A DNA stretch of 32,000 bases from Delftia acidovorans NBRC 14950 (GTDB lineage Bacteria > Pseudomonadota > Gammaproteobacteria > Burkholderiales > Burkholderiaceae_C): the NCBI RefSeq assembly GCF_001598795.1, contig NZ_BCZP01000012.1, forward strand, positions 179,088 to 211,087. Reading direction: 5' to 3'. This document shows, one piece after another, positions 8,885-31,824 of this stretch (within the stretch, counting starts at the first letter, position 1; each line of letters starts with the position of its first letter). The position numbers were made by a program, and so were the translations under genes. Under the pieces are notes generated by a model. That model did not search any database and was not told the origin of the DNA. It was given only the letters and a program-made list of their open reading frames with translations.

Positions 8885-8960
8885 GGGTCTTTAGCTCAGT
8901 CGGTAGAGCAGCGGACTTTTAATCCGTTGGTCGCGAGTTCGAATCTCGCAGGACCCACCA
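8885..8960 (+). tRNA. tRNA-Lys (anticodon UUU)
   Basis: 76 nt: GGGTCTT/AGGACCC acceptor stem, GCTC..GAGC D arm, anticodon loop CTTTTAA, T arm GCGAG-TTCGAAT-CTCGC, and an encoded CCA. Confidence 0.93.
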
Positions 8961-9032: not shown

Positions 9033-10073
9033 TCAGCCCAGGGACTGCCGTTTCGAGACCTTCGAGCGGTCGTAGACGCGGGCCGTGGTGGCTGAGCTGG
9101 CGTGAAGCTCGGGCAGGGCACCATACCGTGCCTTGTGCTGGGTCGTGTAGTACGCCCGCAGGTCGTGGAAGGTGAAGCGCCTGCTGATCACCTTGGTCTC
9201 CAGGGCTTCGACCATGGCCCGCTGCCAGCCCGTGGTGAATCCCGATTCCGTGAGTGGGCTGCCGTGCTGATTGATGAAGACATGCAGCGATGTCTCAGGG
9301 CGTGGCAGCTGCAGCAGCCTCTTGGCCAGGTCCAGCATGGCCGGGCCCATGGCGATGTTCTCCGCCCGCTTGGTGCCGCCGTGTTGCTTTGCGCGCATCA
9401 GCCGGATCTCGCCGGCCTGCATGTCGATCTGCGGCACCTGCAGGGCCAGGAACTCCACGCGGCGCGAGCCAGCCAGGGCGGCGAACTCGGCCATCAGGGC
9501 CAGGGTTTTGCGTGCAGGGCTACCGGCCTCCAGCCAGTCCAGGAAAGCGCGTAGCTCGGCCGGCTCCGGCGCCTCCGTCCGGGCTCGCTCGCTGTTCTTC
9601 TTGACCTGCTTGCACGGGTTGGCGTCGATCAGTCCACGCTCGATGGCCACGTTCATCAGGTTGGAGAGCAGGGCGATTTCTCGATTGCCCCGCACGGGCG
9701 CGTCTGCACGCTCTACGCGCAGGAACCTGGCGATGTCTGTAGGACGCACCGCGGCGGCTGGCACCTCGCCCATGACCTCAATGAGCTTCACGCTGTACGA
9801 CTCGTAGTCCTTCTTCGTGCGCTCCGCCAGGGCCGTCCAGCGGGCTGTCTTTTGGTACAGGTCCCATAGCTCGCGGATCGTGCCCTGCACGTTTGGAACG
9901 TGATTCATCTCCAGCACGGCCTGTATGGCCGCGGTGCGGTCGGTGCCCAGGTTGATGGGCTTGCCACCCACCGGGTGATATCGGTAGGTGACAAGCCCGT
10001 TCTTGCGCGGCCGAGCCTCCATCCGGGGCAGAAGGCCGAAGCCTGATGCTCGCTCTCTTCTGCGACCCATCAT
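9033..10073 (-). CDS. int: Phage tyrosine integrase
   Basis: 346 aa. The C-terminal catalytic region has 'FTFHDLRAYY' (H-x-x-R) and the Tyr of 'TARVYDRS'. The position next to a tRNA is typical. Confidence 0.93.
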   Translation of the reverse strand: MMGRRRERASGFGLLPRMEARPRKNGLVTYRYHPVGGKPINLGTDRTAAIQAVLEMNHVPNVQGTIRELWDLYQKTARWTALAERTKKDYESYSVKLIEVMGEVPAAAVRPTDIARFLRVERADAPVRGNREIALLSNLMNVAIERGLIDANPCKQVKKNSERARTEAPEPAELRAFLDWLEAGSPARKTLALMAEFAALAGSRRVEFLALQVPQIDMQAGEIRLMRAKQHGGTKRAENIAMGPAMLDLAKRLLQLPRPETSLHVFINQHGSPLTESGFTTGWQRAMVEALETKVISRRFTFHDLRAYYTTQHKARYGALPELHASSATTARVYDRSKVSKRQSLG

Positions 10074-15779: not shown

Positions 15780-16469
15780 TTACCTTTGTGAGAAGTACCT
15801 CTTCCGCACGCCATCAACCGTCTGGTTGCACAGATTCTGCGTCGCAAGAGTGATCTCGGGGACGTGGATGCAGACCCCTGGCGAATGCCGAAAAGAATCA
15901 GCCTTCACTTCGTCGAAGTACTGCACTTCGCCGTCGGCGAGTTTGACGGTGTAGCGCGTCTTGTACTGCTGTACTGGGGCCGAGTCGGCCGCTGATCCAA
16001 GCATCGCCCCCAAGATTCCTACTGCCAAGTTCGCTCCAACTGAGTAGCTGTTGCCGCGCAAGGATCGATCAATGTACGCGGCGCTTGCCACAGCCCCGCC
16101 GAGAGCTGCGCCGCCAGAAGTGCCTGGTGTGGATTGGTCAACAGTCTGGACGTCAGTTATCACGCCATATCGATCAGGCTGGTGAGTTCGGACAGCGTGG
16201 GTATCTTGGAGCTTTGCTTGCTCGTCGGGAGACAGTGCATCCCAGTTGTCCTTTGACAGGTGCGCAATCGTTTTGGTGGGTGTTGGCGCAGCTTCTTGAG
16301 TGCTCGGGGTTGTCAGCTTCCAGGCGCCAAGCGCAGGGACTTCGACCTGCGGGACTGCCGTATACCCTGGGTCAGTGGTCCTTGCGGTATATCGAGGCAT
16401 CTCTGGCGCTGAAGTGGCGCAGCCAGCTAACGTGGCAGCCAACAATGCAAGGAAGAGCGGCGAGCGCAT
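15780..16469 (-). CDS. Lipoprotein with glycine-zipper segment
   Basis: 'MRSPLFLALLAATLAGC' is a signal peptide plus lipobox. The C-terminal 'GGAALGGAVASAAY...GANLAVGILGAMLGSAA' is glycine-zipper-like. GC is visibly lower. Confidence 0.72.
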   Translation of the reverse strand: MRSPLFLALLAATLAGCATSAPEMPRYTARTTDPGYTAVPQVEVPALGAWKLTTPSTQEAAPTPTKTIAHLSKDNWDALSPDEQAKLQDTHAVRTHQPDRYGVITDVQTVDQSTPGTSGGAALGGAVASAAYIDRSLRGNSYSVGANLAVGILGAMLGSAADSAPVQQYKTRYTVKLADGEVQYFDEVKADSFRHSPGVCIHVPEITLATQNLCNQTVDGVRKRYFSQR

Positions 16470-16471
16470 AG

Positions 16472-16858
16472 TCACTCGTCGAACTTGATTGCGCGGCCCT
16501 TGCCCTCAAGGCTACCCCAGCTCATCAGCGATATTCCGCCCTTTCCGTAGCGAGCCAAAACGACAGCATCGGCCCCCATCTCAGACGCCTTCTCTTTGAG
16601 CTTTTCAGTCACCATCTCGCGGGTAGGGTCCGGGTGGAAGACGGTGGTTTTGTTGACCATGACAGAGATGTCGCCAAGCATCCTGTACTTGCGGTCTGTG
16701 ATGTCGCTTTCTGTGACCTGGATCTGCGATGGTTGCTTCTTCGGCCCCTGACCTGCAGTGATGTCGGCTGCACTGTTGTCCACTGAACTGGTTGACCAAG
16801 TTGCACAGCCCGTCATAGAGGCGCACAAAAGAATTGAGCAAAGAATTTTCGTGCGCAT
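16472..16858 (-). CDS. Small lipoprotein
   Basis: 'MRTKILCSILLCASMTGC' is a signal peptide plus lipobox; 128 aa. Its stop abuts the start of the next lipoprotein gene. GC is visibly lower. Confidence 0.72.
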   Translation of the reverse strand: MRTKILCSILLCASMTGCATWSTSSVDNSAADITAGQGPKKQPSQIQVTESDITDRKYRMLGDISVMVNKTTVFHPDPTREMVTEKLKEKASEMGADAVVLARYGKGGISLMSWGSLEGKGRAIKFDE

Positions 16859-17245
16859 AGCTTTCCCTATTGTGGTGTTGTATCAAAAAGTACGGAGAGT
16901 GTAGGCCGTAACCGTTGAGCTTTGCAATGAGAAAGATTGCAAGTCACTCTACCGTCGCGGCCAAGCTCGGCCTGCGTGCCCTGCCGCATCCTGATCAGCC
17001 GATCCACTACTTCGATCGGTATCCCCAACCAAGCCGTCTTGACCGGCAGGAAGGCTGATGTTTTGGCCTGTACTTGAGTCTTTTGAGGGCTTTGCCGTTG
17101 GCGGCGCGTCGGCGCTGGCGGACTGGAGTCAGGGCGATAGTGTCATCGCATCATAAGAAATCCCGCTGACTAATGTGAAGTGGCGCACTCAGACTGCCGC
17201 TGTCTGCGAGGCAACGCGCTGCCTTGATGCGTGGCTGCAGCGATG

Positions 17246-17794
17246 CTAGACGTGATGCAGCGGCGCGCCTGGAGTTGGACTGAACAGGCCAAAACCATGA
17301 GCGACACCTGTACGTATTGCGTCGGTGGCATTCATGTGCAGATTGCCCCGTTCAATGATGTTCCACATCTGCTCGTCAAATGTGGCGCCTGCGGCAACTA
17401 CTATGTCTCGATGCCTAATGATATCGAGTACCAAAGAATCATGCGCTCCTTTGAGTGCCTCAGGGCTCCCGCTACCCTGCAGTCCGGCGGAGTAAGGTTG
17501 ATGGAACATGAAGGAGGCCGTATCGCATGTGTGCCGCTTGCTACCAGCCAAGTAGATGAGCGTTGCGCAAGACTCGATGGCACCCATGTTGAAGGTGCTG
17601 ACAGGTATTTGTAGACTCTTGATAACGTTTGCGATCGTCACGGCGGATGCAATGTGTCCGCCTGGCGAAGAGATCAGAAGGTTGATCTGGGAAAAAGAAC
17701 TATTCGCCTGATACAAAGCCGGAATAGATCTTGTAATCGTGCCGTTGTCTACAACGCCTGACAACGTCATCCAGACGATCGGTTTCTCATCCAT
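17246..17794 (-). CDS. Truncated ClpP-fold (S14-like) serine protease homologue
   Basis: 182 aa. 'INLLISSPGG', 'MGAIESCATLIYLAG' and 'SFMFHQP' align by eye with ClpP 'YINSPGG', 'GQAASMGAFLL' (Ser) and 'VMIHQP' (His). The SD AAAGGGGG lies upstream. The region is AT-rich. Confidence 0.8.
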   Translation of the reverse strand: MDEKPIVWMTLSGVVDNGTITRSIPALYQANSSFSQINLLISSPGGHIASAVTIANVIKSLQIPVSTFNMGAIESCATLIYLAGSKRHTCDTASFMFHQPYSAGLQGSGSPEALKGAHDSLVLDIIRHRDIVVAAGATFDEQMWNIIERGNLHMNATDAIRTGVAHGFGLFSPTPGAPLHHV

Positions 17795-17830
17795 AGCTCG
17801 GCCCCCTTTAAGCAGCCAGTCAACAGCAGC

Positions 17831-18460
17831 TCACTTGGAAAGATCAACTATGCATTTGGCGAATTGCTCAACCATCTCGTTTGACCTTTCTCGTATCAAT
17901 TGGCTCTCTCCAGCTTTAGAGTCTTTTACGGTTAGGTCAATCTCAATGTGCACATCTTGTTGACCTTTCTTCCTATTGAAGCCAAGCACAGTCTTTTGAT
18001 TTTTCATGATTCCCTCGAAAACCTGCCTCTGTGAGTCATCAAGTGCTCCGATGAACAAAGCGTAGCCTGGGGTTTCTGCCTCTGTTCTGATGATATTTTT
18101 TGGAGCAATCCCATTGGTGTCTCTCAGGAAAGCGTTTGCTGGAGCCCACGCTTTGGCACTTCCGTCCATACCATCTCTCACGCCAACCTTCAGCGCATAG
18201 CCAAAAGTATTCTGGTATGTCCTAATATAGTAGGAGCCATTTACCAATACAGGAGCGCTAGCCTTAGTAGCAAAATCACGGCCAATGGCGGCGAACTCAA
18301 AGCCACATGCACTTAACTGTCCGTCTGCCGTTTCACGATGACTTTTCACGAACAGCGTTCCAGACATGTACTCTGCAAGCTGCCTTTCTAGATCGCTTGT
18401 GGAGCACCATCCCGCCGTGGGCAGTAATGCAAGAAGAGCGAATAGATGATTTCTTGGCAT
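17831..18460 (-). CDS. Signal-peptide protein of unknown family
   Basis: 209 aa with N-terminus 'MPRNHLFALLALLPTAGWC'. It lies 36 nt upstream of the ClpP-fold gene on the same strand. Low GC. No family recognised. Confidence 0.62.
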   Translation of the reverse strand: MPRNHLFALLALLPTAGWCSTSDLERQLAEYMSGTLFVKSHRETADGQLSACGFEFAAIGRDFATKASAPVLVNGSYYIRTYQNTFGYALKVGVRDGMDGSAKAWAPANAFLRDTNGIAPKNIIRTEAETPGYALFIGALDDSQRQVFEGIMKNQKTVLGFNRKKGQQDVHIEIDLTVKDSKAGESQLIRERSNEMVEQFAKCIVDLSK

Positions 18461-18477
18461 GTCTTTCTCACATCATG

Positions 18478-18544
18478 ATCTGCATACCATAGATTGAATC
18501 TGCAATTCGTTTTCCTGTCAATCGGACATGCGCGTTTGCAGATT
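18478..18544. repeat. Inverted/direct repeats around that promoter
   Basis: AATCTGCAA (18497-18505) and its reverse complement TTGCAGATT (18536-18544) bracket the -35. A third ATCTGCA copy lies at 18478-18484. Confidence 0.6.
18493..18521 (-). promoter_or_regulatory. Candidate private promoter of the 209-aa/ClpP-fold pair
   Basis: The minus strand reads TTGACA (18521-18516), a 17-nt spacer, then TTCAAT (18498-18493), about 30 nt upstream of the ATG at 18460. Confidence 0.4.
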
Positions 18545-18614
18545 AAACTTTAGAGTTAGGCCATCAGGGTCAATACTGCTGACAAAGAAATTTCCAGGTG
18601 CACCCTATTCTCCT

Positions 18615-19277
18615 TTATTCGGGCACCCACTTCCCAATAACTACACCACAGATGGTCGCCTCGCCGTCGATTGGTGTGAGCCTGGGCTTCCAGTCCGGGT
18701 TCAAGGCGCGCAGGAACTTGCGGCCATCCTCTTCTAAGTACTGCTTGAACGTGGCTTGCTCTTGGCTCTCAAGGCGGACCACAACACGGTCGCCTGGTTG
18801 AGCCATCCGGCCCGGATCCACAAAGATGATGTCCCCAGGCTCGTAGGTAGGGCGTGCGCCGGGGTTGCTCATGCTTTCACCTTCAACGCGGAGACAAAAC
18901 GTGGTTTCTCCATGCCGCACAGGGCATGGCAGCCAGTCCTCCGCGTCACCTGGGCGAAACGTGTCCACTATCTCAGACCAATTTCCTGCTTGCACCGACG
19001 AAATCAAGGGTACAAGCTTAGGTGTGGGGCGGTCTGAAAAGTGGCCTGTCATCGGCATCATCACCTGATGTATGCGCAGTGGCTTCATGCCTGCGAGTTC
19101 CTCTGCTGTAGTGCCAAGCGCAGCAGCGATCTTGGCCCCGTGCTTCGTATCCCCGCCCTTTTCGATCTTCGCGATCGATACCTGAGAAATGCCTACGGCC
19201 TCAGCGAGTTGAGCTTGGCTCCACCCCCGCTGTTCTCTTAGCGCCTTCATGCGCTCACCAAAAGTACTCACTGACAT
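18615..19277 (-). CDS. cI-type prophage repressor (XRE HTH plus S24 LexA-like autopeptidase)
   Basis: 220 aa. The N-terminal HTH reads 'RGWSQAQLAEAVGISQVSIAKIEKG'. The C-terminal 'RVEGESMSNP...GDIIFVD...TFKQY' carries the Ser/Lys dyad pattern. Confidence 0.9.
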   Translation of the reverse strand: MSVSTFGERMKALREQRGWSQAQLAEAVGISQVSIAKIEKGGDTKHGAKIAAALGTTAEELAGMKPLRIHQVMMPMTGHFSDRPTPKLVPLISSVQAGNWSEIVDTFRPGDAEDWLPCPVRHGETTFCLRVEGESMSNPGARPTYEPGDIIFVDPGRMAQPGDRVVVRLESQEQATFKQYLEEDGRKFLRALNPDWKPRLTPIDGEATICGVVIGKWVPE

Positions 19278-29759: not shown

Positions 29760-31001
29760 ATGAAGATATTCGACAAGCTGTTCCGGCGGGATGGGCCGGA
29801 GGCTCAGTCGCGCCCGCGAGCCAGTTCGGAAGGAATTACCTTCCAGGGGCTGGACGACCCGGCGCTGCTGGAGTTCATCCGCAACGGCCAGATGGGCGCA
29901 TCGAACCGGATGCTGCGCAACACCTCGGCGCTGCGCTGTCTCTCGCTGATCGGCAATGGCCTGGGCATGCTGCCCACCAGCCTTTACCGGGCCGGAGACG
30001 ACAAGGAGGTCGCCAGGGAGCACCCAGCGCACAAGCTGCTGCGCTACAAGCCGAACCCCTGGCAAACACCGATGGAGTTCAAGAGCCAGATGCAGCTGCT
30101 GCTGGAGACCGAGGGCAACGCATACGCGCGCATCATCCGCGCCGCCGGGCGCCCGATCCACCTGATCCCCTTCGAAAAGGGCAAGGTGGACGCCAAGCTG
30201 GGCAGCGGATGGCGCATGCAATACCGCTGCATGACCGAGAACGGCGGGCAGATCACTCTGGATCAGGAGGAGATCCTGCATGTGCGCGAGATCTCGTTCG
30301 ACGGCGTGCTGGGACTGTCCAAGCGGCAGCTGTCCAACGAGGTCTTCGAGCTGGCCGAGCAGGCGCAGCGCGCGGCCGGCAACATCTTCAAGACTGGCGT
30401 GATGGCTGGGGGCGCGATAGAGACGCCGAATGCTCTCTCAGACCAGGCGTACAACCGCATGCGGGCCTCGCTGGACCAGGGACTGAGCGGCTCCGAGAAC
30501 GTCAACAAATGGATGATCGCGGAGGAGGGGGCCAAGGCCAATCCCTTCACCTCGACGGCCAAGGACGGCCAGCAGCTGGAAAGCCGCAACCACCAGATCG
30601 AGGAGGTCGCCCGCCTGTACGGCGTGCCCCGCCCGCTGCTGATGATGGATGACACAAGTTGGGGCTCCGGCATTGAGCAACTGGCCATCTTCTTCGTGCA
30701 ATTCACGATGACGCCGCGCTTCACGGCATGGGAGCAGGCCCTGGAGCGCTCGCTGCTGACGGATGCAGAGCGGGGCCACTACTACTTCAAGTTCAACGAG
30801 CGCGCGCTGCTGCGCGGCACGCTCAAGGACCAGGCGGACTACTTCGCCAAGGCGCTGGGCGCCGGTGGCCACCAGCCATGGCACACGGCCAACGAGGTCC
30901 GCGACCTGGCTGAGTACCCGGCAGACCCGAACCCGAAGTTCAACACCCTGGGCGATCCCTCGGGGAAGAAAGCAAGCAATGAGCCTCAAACAACTACCTG
31001 A
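29760..31001 (+). CDS. Portal protein, HK97 family
   Basis: 413 aa. 'PNPWQTPMEFKSQMQLLLETEGNAYARI' is the typical HK97-family portal motif. It sits between terL and the prohead protease. Confidence 0.9.
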   Translation: MKIFDKLFRRDGPEAQSRPRASSEGITFQGLDDPALLEFIRNGQMGASNRMLRNTSALRCLSLIGNGLGMLPTSLYRAGDDKEVAREHPAHKLLRYKPNPWQTPMEFKSQMQLLLETEGNAYARIIRAAGRPIHLIPFEKGKVDAKLGSGWRMQYRCMTENGGQITLDQEEILHVREISFDGVLGLSKRQLSNEVFELAEQAQRAAGNIFKTGVMAGGAIETPNALSDQAYNRMRASLDQGLSGSENVNKWMIAEEGAKANPFTSTAKDGQQLESRNHQIEEVARLYGVPRPLLMMDDTSWGSGIEQLAIFFVQFTMTPRFTAWEQALERSLLTDAERGHYYFKFNERALLRGTLKDQADYFAKALGAGGHQPWHTANEVRDLAEYPADPNPKFNTLGDPSGKKASNEPQTTT

Positions 31002-31824
31002 GATCCGCGCGGATCACCGGCTGTCCAAGGCTGGATTCGACCTGCGCCCTGATGCGGTGGACCGATGGGAGCCCGAGGTGCGAGCCTCGGCCAGCGACGC
31101 GGAAACGAGCATCTCCATCTACGACTCCATCGGGGAGAACTGGGAGGGCACGGGCGTCACGGCCAAGCGCATCGGCGCCGCACTGCGCAACATCGGTGCG
31201 CGCGACGTGACGGTCAACCTCAACTCCCCGGGTGGCGACTTCTTCGAGGGCATGGCCATCTACAACCTGCTGCGCGAGCACAAGGCCAAGGTGACCATCC
31301 GCGTGCTGGGCGTGGCCGCCTCGGTGGCTTCGGTGATTGCCATGGCCGGCGACGAGATCCTGATGGGTGATGGCTCGTTCCTGATGATCCACAACGCCTG
31401 GGCCGTGGCCGTCGGAAACCGCCACGACATGACCGACACAGCCGCCGTGCTGGCGCCGTTCGATGCCGCGATGGCTGCGCTGTATGCCCACCGCTCCGGG
31501 ATCACCGAGGCTGAGGCCGCGATGCTGATGGATCGCGAAACCTGGATCGGTGCGCAACAAGCAGTCGATGACGGCTTCGCCACTGGCCTGCTGCCCAGCT
31601 CGGAGATAACCCGCACGGCCCAAGCATCTGGCGCGCGCAAGCCGCTGGCGCTGATCGAGGCCTCAATGGCCAAGGCCGGCTACTCGCGCAATGCGCGCAG
31701 AGATGCGTTCAAAGCCCTGTTTTCCAACGGCACGCCGGGCGCTGCCGATCCTGGGGCCACGCCGCGCGCTGGCCCTGAAGTCGCAGCCTCGCTGCAATCG
31801 CTGCTGGACACGATGCGCGTGTAG
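30979..31824 (+). CDS. Prohead (head maturation) protease, ClpP/S14-like
   Basis: The ATG at 30979 overlaps the portal 3' end. It has 'VNLNSPGGDFFEGMAIYN', 'GVAASVASVIAMAGD' (Ser) and 'LMIHNAW' (His). Confidence 0.85.
   Translation: MSLKQLPEIRADHRLSKAGFDLRPDAVDRWEPEVRASASDAETSISIYDSIGENWEGTGVTAKRIGAALRNIGARDVTVNLNSPGGDFFEGMAIYNLLREHKAKVTIRVLGVAASVASVIAMAGDEILMGDGSFLMIHNAWAVAVGNRHDMTDTAAVLAPFDAAMAALYAHRSGITEAEAAMLMDRETWIGAQQAVDDGFATGLLPSSEITRTAQASGARKPLALIEASMAKAGYSRNARRDAFKALFSNGTPGAADPGATPRAGPEVAASLQSLLDTMRV

Follow-up and report, generated by a model that had tools for sequence, protein, structure and literature searches.

Two genes behind the cI-type repressor of a Delftia acidovorans prophage, encoding a predicted exported protein and a short ClpP paralog, are more probably separate cargo than a functional pair

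When two genes of foreign composition lie side by side behind the repressor of a prophage, do they work together or did each arrive on its own? This question is raised by a 32,000-nucleotide stretch of the genome of Delftia acidovorans NBRC 14950 (contig NZ_BCZP01000012.1, positions 179,088 to 211,087; hereafter the window, in which all coordinates given without a locus number are counted). The window carries a prophage whose cI-type repressor gene (220 aa, 18615-19277, (-) strand) is followed on the same strand by two open reading frames (ORFs). The first, named p209 (17831-18460, (-) strand), encodes a 209-aa protein with the N-terminus MPRNHLFALLALLPTAGWC; the second, named clp182 (17246-17794, (-) strand), encodes a 182-aa ClpP-like protein. 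The distance from cI to p209 is 154 nt and that from p209 to clp182 is 36 nt. An earlier reading of this DNA made from its letters alone, referred to below as the sequence-only reading, took the p209-clp182 pair for a two-gene system of the rexAB type, serving abortive infection or exclusion, co-transcribed with cI and composed of an exported or anchored protein and a ClpP-fold protease. On the results presented here we consider it probable, though by no means certain, that they are instead two independently acquired cargo genes (morons) in a hypervariable slot downstream of cI, and not a functional pair.

The arrangement itself had been described correctly: the ORF map and the base composition agree that the two genes directly follow cI, on one strand, in an AT-richer block. 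The GC content is 0.47 for p209 and 0.52 for clp182, as compared to 0.605 for the prophage overall, and the GC content of third codon positions (GC3) is 0.46 and 0.58, respectively, as compared to 0.80-0.87 for the structural genes of the prophage. Both genes are compositionally foreign, with unlike GC3. Their adjacency on one strand with a short gap, the lack of a terminator behind cI (see below), their AT-richness relative to the prophage, the intact catalytic Ser and His of clp182 and the fact that the same slot houses defence genes in related phages are the features that speak for a two-gene system.

The distribution of the two genes points the other way. Hidden Markov model (HMM) scans of 20 loci, representing about 14 other lineages, detected no ClpP-like gene within ~5 kb of p209. 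Conversely, p209 was not found near 29 ClpP-like loci scanned with HMMs, nor in four contexts of short clpP genes. Among the loci fetched (designated by L numbers), p209-clp182 adjacency is confined to one Delftia prophage lineage, and each family occurs alone elsewhere. Moreover, within this lineage clp182 is found broken beside an intact p209. The near-identical Delftia prophages L001-L003 and L050 carry an intact p209 and a clp182 with a 1-bp deletion (site 17625, (-) strand) that shifts the frame at about residue 58; in D. tsuruhatensis the resulting 113-aa product carries the annotation 'hypothetical protein'. A second broken allele in the protein cluster, P0212, has an independent frame change after residue 92 and has lost His98. 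The repeated inactivation of clp182 indicates that the gene is dispensable. The window has an intact clp182, as do L049, which is an IMG/VR provirus of an isolate genome, and several protein variants. A further D. acidovorans lineage, in which p209 is 91% identical (P0214) and cI is a variant of its own, contains no detectable ClpP-like cluster member, and this suggests that it is without clp182 altogether.

The predicted locations of the two products do not favour a partnership either. p209 is predicted to be exported and clp182 has no export signal, so that the inner membrane should separate the two products; apart from the signal peptide neither has a transmembrane segment. With p209 predicted to be periplasmic and clp182 cytoplasmic, a direct partnership is unlikely. 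PADLOC gave no match at E <= 1 for either protein, and Pfam no match to RexA or RexB. The sequence-only reading had itself named a lack of conservation as a pair among the results that would speak against its proposal; the comparison shows just this lack, and we regard the two-gene system as unlikely.

What the slot downstream of cI holds in other phages is informative in this respect. In 25 IMG/VR phages with a homologous cI (31-91% identity) the first gene behind cI differs in essentially every lineage, and in none of the 25 is it p209 or a ClpP-like gene. Occupants that were sampled include a KilA-N/BstA homolog, two HSDR_N nuclease-like proteins (in L077 and L088), a DUF6694 protein and an Ig-like exported protein. 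The BstA homolog (L083:4801-5571; PADLOC E 3e-17) sits in the exact slot of p209, behind a cI that is 45% identical to that of the window. The location of bstA downstream of cI has been documented, as has that of lambda rexAB in the same mosaic hotspot (PMC8585504). The proposal that the position behind cI is equivalent to that of rexAB, i.e. a slot for cargo and defence genes, is therefore upheld by the comparison of the 25 phages, by the BstA homolog and by the published work. Like lambda rexAB and bstA of Salmonella phage BTP1, p209 and clp182 lie downstream of cI and would presumably be expressed in the lysogen. Unlike RexA, RexB and BstA, to which they show no sequence or domain similarity, they include no membrane channel component and do not constitute a conserved pair.

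Which genes, then, accompany p209 outside the Delftia lineage? Upstream and on the same strand there is often a regulator gene, of varying type: an S24 repressor in the window and L012, an HTH_3 protein in L010 and MarR in L051-L054; in L060 a DUF3987/PriCT primase gene is located upstream of p209. Close behind p209, or overlapping with it, lies a gene of the same strand at about 14 of 17 loci; L006, L011 and L053 have no same-strand downstream gene. The identity of the downstream gene varies widely. It is clp182 in the window lineage, a secreted SNase in L012 and L060, a small secreted HNH-type protein in L009 and L056, a KAP-type NTPase within a TIR/HEPN island in L007 and L008, an 8xMP membrane protein in L058, small membrane proteins in L004 and L057, a Schlafen-like protein in L051, a DUF3800 protein in L052, and a 67-aa ORF followed by a GDSL lipase in L010. 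The stretch L007/L008:2443-10465 is chromosomal and resembles a defence island, with a 580-aa KAP-type P-loop NTPase behind p209 and a CAP12/PCTIR TIR gene and a HEPN gene nearby.

These neighbourhoods could be taken to mean that p209 is the conserved periplasmic part of a modular system whose downstream effectors are interchangeable, clp182 being the effector in the Delftia lineage. The frequency with which a gene follows closely or overlaps, and the defence-type neighbours (KAP NTPase, TIR, HEPN, Schlafen-like and DUF3800 proteins), are in line with such a system. So are the recurring couples of p209 with a secreted nuclease, of the SNase type (L012:6001-7187 and L060:3516-4854) or the HNH type (L009:1222-2135 and L056:1235-2136). 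All four nuclease partners have signal peptides, p209 is overlapped by 4-28 nt, and the nucleases belong to two unrelated folds. The L060 partner matches SNase in Pfam with E 2.6e-24. The small HNH-type partners have a clear H-N-H motif (CPGYxVDH..GG..NMQW..H) and a Pfam HNH match that is below threshold (E 0.008-0.017), which weakens this part of the case. The two SNases are 46% identical to each other and their p209 proteins 43%; for the HNH-type pair these values are 48% and 49%. The similar divergence of nuclease and p209, together with the overlap of their genes, looks like an old, maintained coupling.

The four loci in which MarR precedes p209 (L051-L054, e.g. L051:3-2604) behave differently. 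Their p209 proteins are 97-99% identical and the MarR-p209 DNA is 90-97% identical. Homology at the DNA level ends ~30 bp past the p209 stop codon, to set in again 1-2.6 kb further on, and the cassettes in between encode a 451-aa Schlafen/AlbA_2-like protein, a DUF3800 protein or a 283-aa protein without assignment. As homology breaks right after its stop codon, p209 at these loci forms the border of a swap site, and not one half of an operon. Nearly identical p209 copies in front of different cassettes are what is expected of a hotspot, not of cognate pairing. In addition, loci without any same-strand downstream gene exist, and the cytoplasmic partners (ClpP-like, Schlafen-like, DUF3800 and KAP NTPase proteins) would have no direct contact with a periplasmic p209. 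We therefore consider the modular system doubtful, and favour independent acquisition of p209 and clp182.

What kind of protein is p209? The hydrophobic, signal-like start noted in the sequence-only reading is present, and so is the absence of a family that can be named. The N-terminus consists of MPRNH followed by LFALLALLPTAGW and combines, like a signal peptide, a basic n-region with a hydrophobic core and a cleavage site of small residues; the part coding for it, residues 1 to about 19, corresponds to 18404-18460 ((-) strand) and reaches a Kyte-Doolittle 12-mer maximum of 2.04. Equivalent segments are found in the homologs, mostly ending in A-x-A-Q according to the family alignment, and the segment is kept with conservative changes in the variant P0214. 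A protein search yielded 17 homologs that are 40-48% identical and come from Variovorax, Caenimonas and similar organisms of the Comamonadaceae type, and scans of metagenomes and viral contigs added further loci. C52, C203 and a GFNRxxGQQDV block are invariant in the family alignment. On these grounds p209 is predicted to be a Sec-exported periplasmic protein, in which C52 and C203 probably form a disulfide. A lipoprotein was considered and rejected: the candidate site reads A-G-W-C, with Trp at position -1, and does not contain a lipobox [LVI][ASTVI][GAS]C, and the homologs have no Cys at this position.

Public records of p209 are at variance on these points. The older ones, such as KFJ11756.1 in Delftia acidovorans, have 209 aa and the name 'putative lipoprotein'. 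The NCBI Prokaryotic Genome Annotation Pipeline (PGAP) places the start at Met32, giving a form of 178 aa (e.g. WP_155294224.1) in which the signal peptide is lost (residues 1-31, 18367-18460 in the window). Because homology extends upstream of Met32 and the hydrophobic segment is conserved, the long form is favoured, and the PGAP annotation probably hides the export signal.

The AlphaFold2 (AF2) model of p209 is confident, with a predicted local distance difference test (pLDDT) of 88.5 and a predicted template modelling score (pTM) of 0.82. Pfam, PHROGs, PADLOC and NCBIfam gave no match, also when all 17 family members were scanned, and the family profile found none among PDB sequences. Foldseek with the model returned only noise (best E 0.17 in PDB and 0.03 in BFVD; template modelling (TM) score at most 0.33). 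Neither p209 nor the prophage region has a relative in the INPHARED phage collection.

Several temperate phages encode exported proteins or lipoproteins that act in superinfection exclusion, among them P1 Sim, T4 Sp, phi80/N15 Cor and Streptococcus TP-J34 Ltp. By location and topology p209 is most like these factors, as it would be a small exported protein encoded in or near the immunity region and presumably expressed in the lysogen. It differs from them in having no lipobox and no sequence or fold similarity detectable in PHROGs or BFVD. Following Sec export to the periplasm, where a Cys52-Cys203 disulfide is probable, p209 would be sufficient by itself; it is encountered repeatedly as the first gene of variable cargo slots, in prophages and mobile elements that are not related to each other. 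Protection of the lysogen at the level of the envelope, through superinfection exclusion or interference with phage entry, would be its most likely function.

The second gene is of a more familiar kind. clp182 (public record WP_080736848.1) matches Pfam CLP_protease (PF00574) with E 1.1e-15 and 58.4 bits, against a cut-off of 20.2. In agreement with the sequence-only reading, SPGG, the Ser of IESCA (Ser75; codon 17570-17572, (-) strand) and the His of FHQP (His98; 17501-17503) are all present, and this Ser and His are invariant in 41 divergent members of the family. SPGG occupies residues 43-46 and is preceded by 42 residues, not by the roughly 37 that had been counted. The third position of the triad, described as Gly or Asn rather than Asp, is indeed not Asp; it is Asn151 (17342-17344, (-) strand), and the alternative Gly150 falls away. 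In this respect clp182 departs from the Ser-His-Asp site of canonical ClpP. The corresponding column of the 41-protein alignment contains D in 24 proteins, E in seven, N in five, A in two, and Q, T and G in one each. The residues invariant in all 41 members, G45, G46, N69, G71, S75, R87, F95 and H98, are all found in clp182.

An exhaustive HMMER search with clp182 retrieved 2793 relatives, including 101 representatives at E <= 1e-10. The closest ~100 are 177-198 aa long and align end to end (residues ~5-180) at 25-38% identity. The N-terminal axial loop or gating region is absent: the Pfam match begins at profile position 36, alignments with canonical ClpP chains in the PDB are offset by about 17-25 residues, and the model opens with a strand at residues 6-12. 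Scores against the ClpP models of NCBIfam are far below the cut-offs (56.8 against 228 bits for PRK12553, and 37.3 against 308.6 for TIGR00493). The fold itself is modelled with confidence (AF2 pLDDT 93.3), and more than 1000 ClpP chains match it at TM scores of 0.75-0.89. Hydropathy analysis revealed neither a signal peptide nor a hydrophobic or transmembrane segment. INPHARED contains only distant ClpPs of jumbo phages (34-36% identity). A locus search based on a subset of the short-ClpP alignment retrieved mostly ordinary ClpP-like genes, and a scan of viral contigs with the subset pattern only the same Delftia prophage. As for the genomic setting of short clpP genes, one is found in Bradyrhizobium at the margin of an island bounded by an integrase (L042), two directly follow an IS1595 transposase gene (L045 and L046) and one is a chromosomal orphan (L047), a small sample of four loci to which the window prophage is to be added. 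As judged from these alignments and contexts, clp182 is an N-terminally truncated, stand-alone ClpP paralog of a ~180-aa family that is often found beside mobility genes.

The sequence-only reading could match a ClpP-fold protease with an exported or anchored partner to no named defence system; for the ClpP-like protein itself, the view that it has no precedent is now outdated. In PpClpP1 of Pseudomonas plecoglossicida, a characterised N-truncated paralog, the N-terminal region that docks ClpX is missing and the third residue is not Asp: the active site is Ser-His-Pro, of which Ser and His are essential for activity and the third residue is not (PMC12900304). It forms a tetradecamer with a 42.7 Å pore, low peptidase activity and no ClpX binding, and its co-assembly with the housekeeping ClpP results in a more active ClpXP complex (PMC12900304). 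PpClpP1 (PDB 9UXT) is the nearest solved relative of clp182 both by sequence and by structure. The clp182 model superimposes on 9uxt_A with a TM score of 0.89 and a root-mean-square deviation of 2.1 Å over 181 of 183 columns, which is better than with any canonical ClpP. The two proteins share their length (182 and 183 aa), the lack of a ClpX-docking N-terminus, the retained Ser and His, a third residue other than Asp and a gene location away from clpX. They differ in that they are only ~23% identical, in having Asn151 versus Pro151 and SPGG versus TMGG, and in that clp182 is prophage cargo whereas PpClpP1 has been described as a chromosomal paralog. With the short-ClpP profile PpClpP1 scores 110 bits, canonical ClpPs 70-85 and true members 190-240; PpClpP1 therefore belongs to a sister lineage of shared architecture and not to the same subfamily. 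A Ser-His-Asn site like that of clp182 is known from ClpP1 of Listeria monocytogenes, which forms ClpP1/P2 heterocomplexes (cited in PMC12900304) and, like clp182, is a second ClpP isoform beside the housekeeping ClpP. Unlike the truncated clp182, Listeria ClpP1 has its full length and a normal N-terminus; the formation of heterocomplexes by clp182 is putative. A literature search gave no match for ClpP-like proteins in anti-phage defence.

The prophage encodes a ClpP-fold protein of its own, the prohead protease (an ORF within 30763-31824, (+) strand), which overlaps and follows the portal gene and matches Pfam CLP_protease with 94 bits. Two very different ClpP-fold genes thus coexist in one genome, and clp182 might be thought a displaced or degenerate copy of the prohead protease without a function of its own. 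Its PHROG matches are indeed head-maturation proteases (PHROG 1684 and 94), with which it shares the ClpP fold, a Ser/His site and its phage-encoded nature. Its identity to the resident protease is however 24% over 66 residues, it reaches 46.8 bits with the ClpP-related head-maturation model NF045542 (cut-off 120), and it lies in the immunity region instead of beside portal and capsid genes. Together with the end-to-end match to the short-ClpP family and the retention of Ser and His in five intact variants, this makes a derivation from the prohead protease highly improbable, and we rejected clp182 as a copy of it. An analogy with NfeD-stomatin pairs was rejected as well: clp182 reaches 18.4 bits with NfeD1b_N (cut-off 40) and has no transmembrane segment, and p209 has neither Band_7 nor another Pfam domain.

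If clp182 is a truncated ClpP paralog of the cytoplasm whose active site is made up of Ser75, His98 and Asn151, homology with PpClpP1 suggests that it could form wide-pore heptameric rings unable to dock ClpX. Such rings might be a weak peptidase by themselves, or might mix with the housekeeping ClpP and retune proteolysis by ClpXP. By analogy with ClpX and CI in Staphylococcus aureus, one possible benefit to the prophage would be a tuning of the turnover of repressor fragments. This leads to another explanation, in which clp182 serves the lysis-lysogeny switch by entering host ClpP rings and altering the ClpXP-dependent turnover of repressor fragments or of proteins of replication and regulation, so that induction or immunity is tuned, p209 being unrelated cargo. 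clp182 is located in the immunity operon, downstream of an autocleaving S24 repressor; mixed rings of PpClpP1 and ClpP2 raise degradation by ClpXP (PMC12900304); and, according to a preprint, ClpX-dependent removal of cleaved CI completes induction in S. aureus phages (bioRxiv 10.1101/2022.09.18.507959). A switch function is difficult to reconcile, however, with the absence of clp182 from related phages with a homologous cI, with the location of short-ClpP members mostly outside prophage immunity regions and with the broken alleles in otherwise intact prophages, and any substrate would be putative. We judge this role improbable. In the reading that we prefer, separate cargo, clp182 is dispensable to the prophage and in decay in some lineages.

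How would the two genes be expressed? A scan of the 154-nt region between cI and p209 (18461-18614, (-) strand) found no terminator-like site between cI and the p209/clp182 genes; its RNA does not fold better than shuffled versions (z = 0.28), and a U-tract is absent, all in agreement with the earlier claim that no terminator separates cI from the two genes. The same region contains the promoter-like element and the inverted repeat that had been proposed as a private promoter with bracketing repeat. The elements exist as described, and on closer inspection each is weak. The candidate promoter (18493-18521, (-) strand), read from the sequence, consists of TTGACA (18516-18521), a 17-nt spacer and TTCAAT (18493-18498); it was missed by a consensus scan because its -10 hexamer matches at only 4/6 positions and does not have the conserved A2. 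The inverted repeat TTGAATCTGCAA / TTGCAGATTAAA (18494-18547, with arms at 18494-18505 and 18536-18547) brackets the -35 box and is a possible operator; a third, partial copy is located at 18478-18487. Perfect inverted repeats with arms of 9 nt or more occurred in 104 of 5000 local shuffles of the region (2%), and a comparable repeat is present in 31 of the 414 tiles of 154 bp across the window (7.5%), so that the repeat exceeds chance only weakly. Its 9-mer is not enriched across the window (seven matches, 7.0 expected). The repeat is unlike the GGTTAT-type repeats of the cI-cro region and therefore gives no hint of cI binding; given also its lack of enrichment and its weakly unusual local statistics, it was dismissed as a cI operator. 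A private promoter plus operator upstream of p209 is plausible, although statistically weak. The simplest expectation, which we infer from the arrangement, is that in the lysogen transcripts from the cI promoter would read through into p209 and clp182, possibly supplemented by a weak promoter of the two genes.

Several observations weigh against separate cargo or against the roles outlined above. Four p209 lineages have a co-diverged secreted nuclease, so p209 is not always a loner. Intact clp182 is the majority form, and five distinct intact variants keep Ser75, His98 and Asn151, which means that the gene is maintained in most carriers. The frameshifted assemblies are perhaps not fully independent of each other, as several are third-party assemblies of public reads whose read sets may overlap. 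The 36-nt gap, the shared strand and the shared low GC fit co-acquisition and co-transcription, and are compatible with a functional link specific to this lineage. The export of p209 was called from hydropathy and alignment and is heuristic, and its exclusion role is inferred from location and neighbourhood, besides the predicted export and the nuclease coupling. Two 112-aa forms of p209 starting at Met98 (P0218 and P0220) might, at the protein level, be broken copies.

As to the wider setting, the prophage adjoins a tRNA-Lys gene (8885-8960), its integration site, and has a tyrosine integrase gene at 9033-10073 ((-) strand). It contains a lambdoid immunity region and a head module with TerL, portal and the ClpP-fold prohead protease. 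The repressor has Pfam matches to Peptidase_S24 (E 1.8e-24) and HTH_3 (E 2.3e-12) and belongs to PHROG 4, transcriptional repressor (E 1.9e-45); on its opposite side lie a divergent cro-like (YdaS) gene and a CP76-type cII gene, assigned by Pfam. Downstream of clp182 are two lipoprotein genes (16472-16858 and 15780-16475, both (-) strand) with the canonical lipoboxes ..MTGC and ..LAGC, preceded by a promoter-like site TTCACA-18-TATGAT (17179-17150). The 128-aa member of this pair has a weak similarity to RcsF, a stress sensor (26.6 bits in NCBIfam with a cut-off of 140; E 5e-6). The whole arm of the prophage from cI to int appears to be rich in envelope proteins. A 127-aa ORF antisense to clp182 (17231-17614, (+) strand), in GC-rich DNA, is probably spurious.

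A more far-reaching possibility, which we put forward as a speculation with little expectation that all its parts will hold, is that p209 founds a new periplasmic family of superinfection-exclusion proteins whose ancestral partner was a secreted nuclease of the SNase or HNH type, attacking phage DNA or the entry apparatus; the nuclease would have been lost in Delftia and an unrelated short ClpP would have landed in the swap site. In a weaker variant, the prophage would use the short ClpP to remodel host ClpXP and in this way block superinfecting phages or tune induction.

The cargo slot behind cI was already known. What the present locus adds is that adjacency in this post-repressor slot is no evidence of a system: the slot is a hotspot of cassette swapping, and neighbours in it can therefore be unrelated cargo. 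clp182 appears as a new, prophage-borne member of the recently characterised N-truncated ClpP paralogs, a class that is sizeable, mobile and stand-alone, and it raises the question of whether mobile elements use short ClpP paralogs to retune host ClpXP. p209 represents an uncharacterised, confidently modelled family, predicted to be periplasmic, whose members turn up again and again in hotspots of prophage and defence genes, several times in a couple with a secreted nuclease. It is a candidate for envelope-level phage exclusion in Comamonadaceae, and the part of this locus most worth testing.

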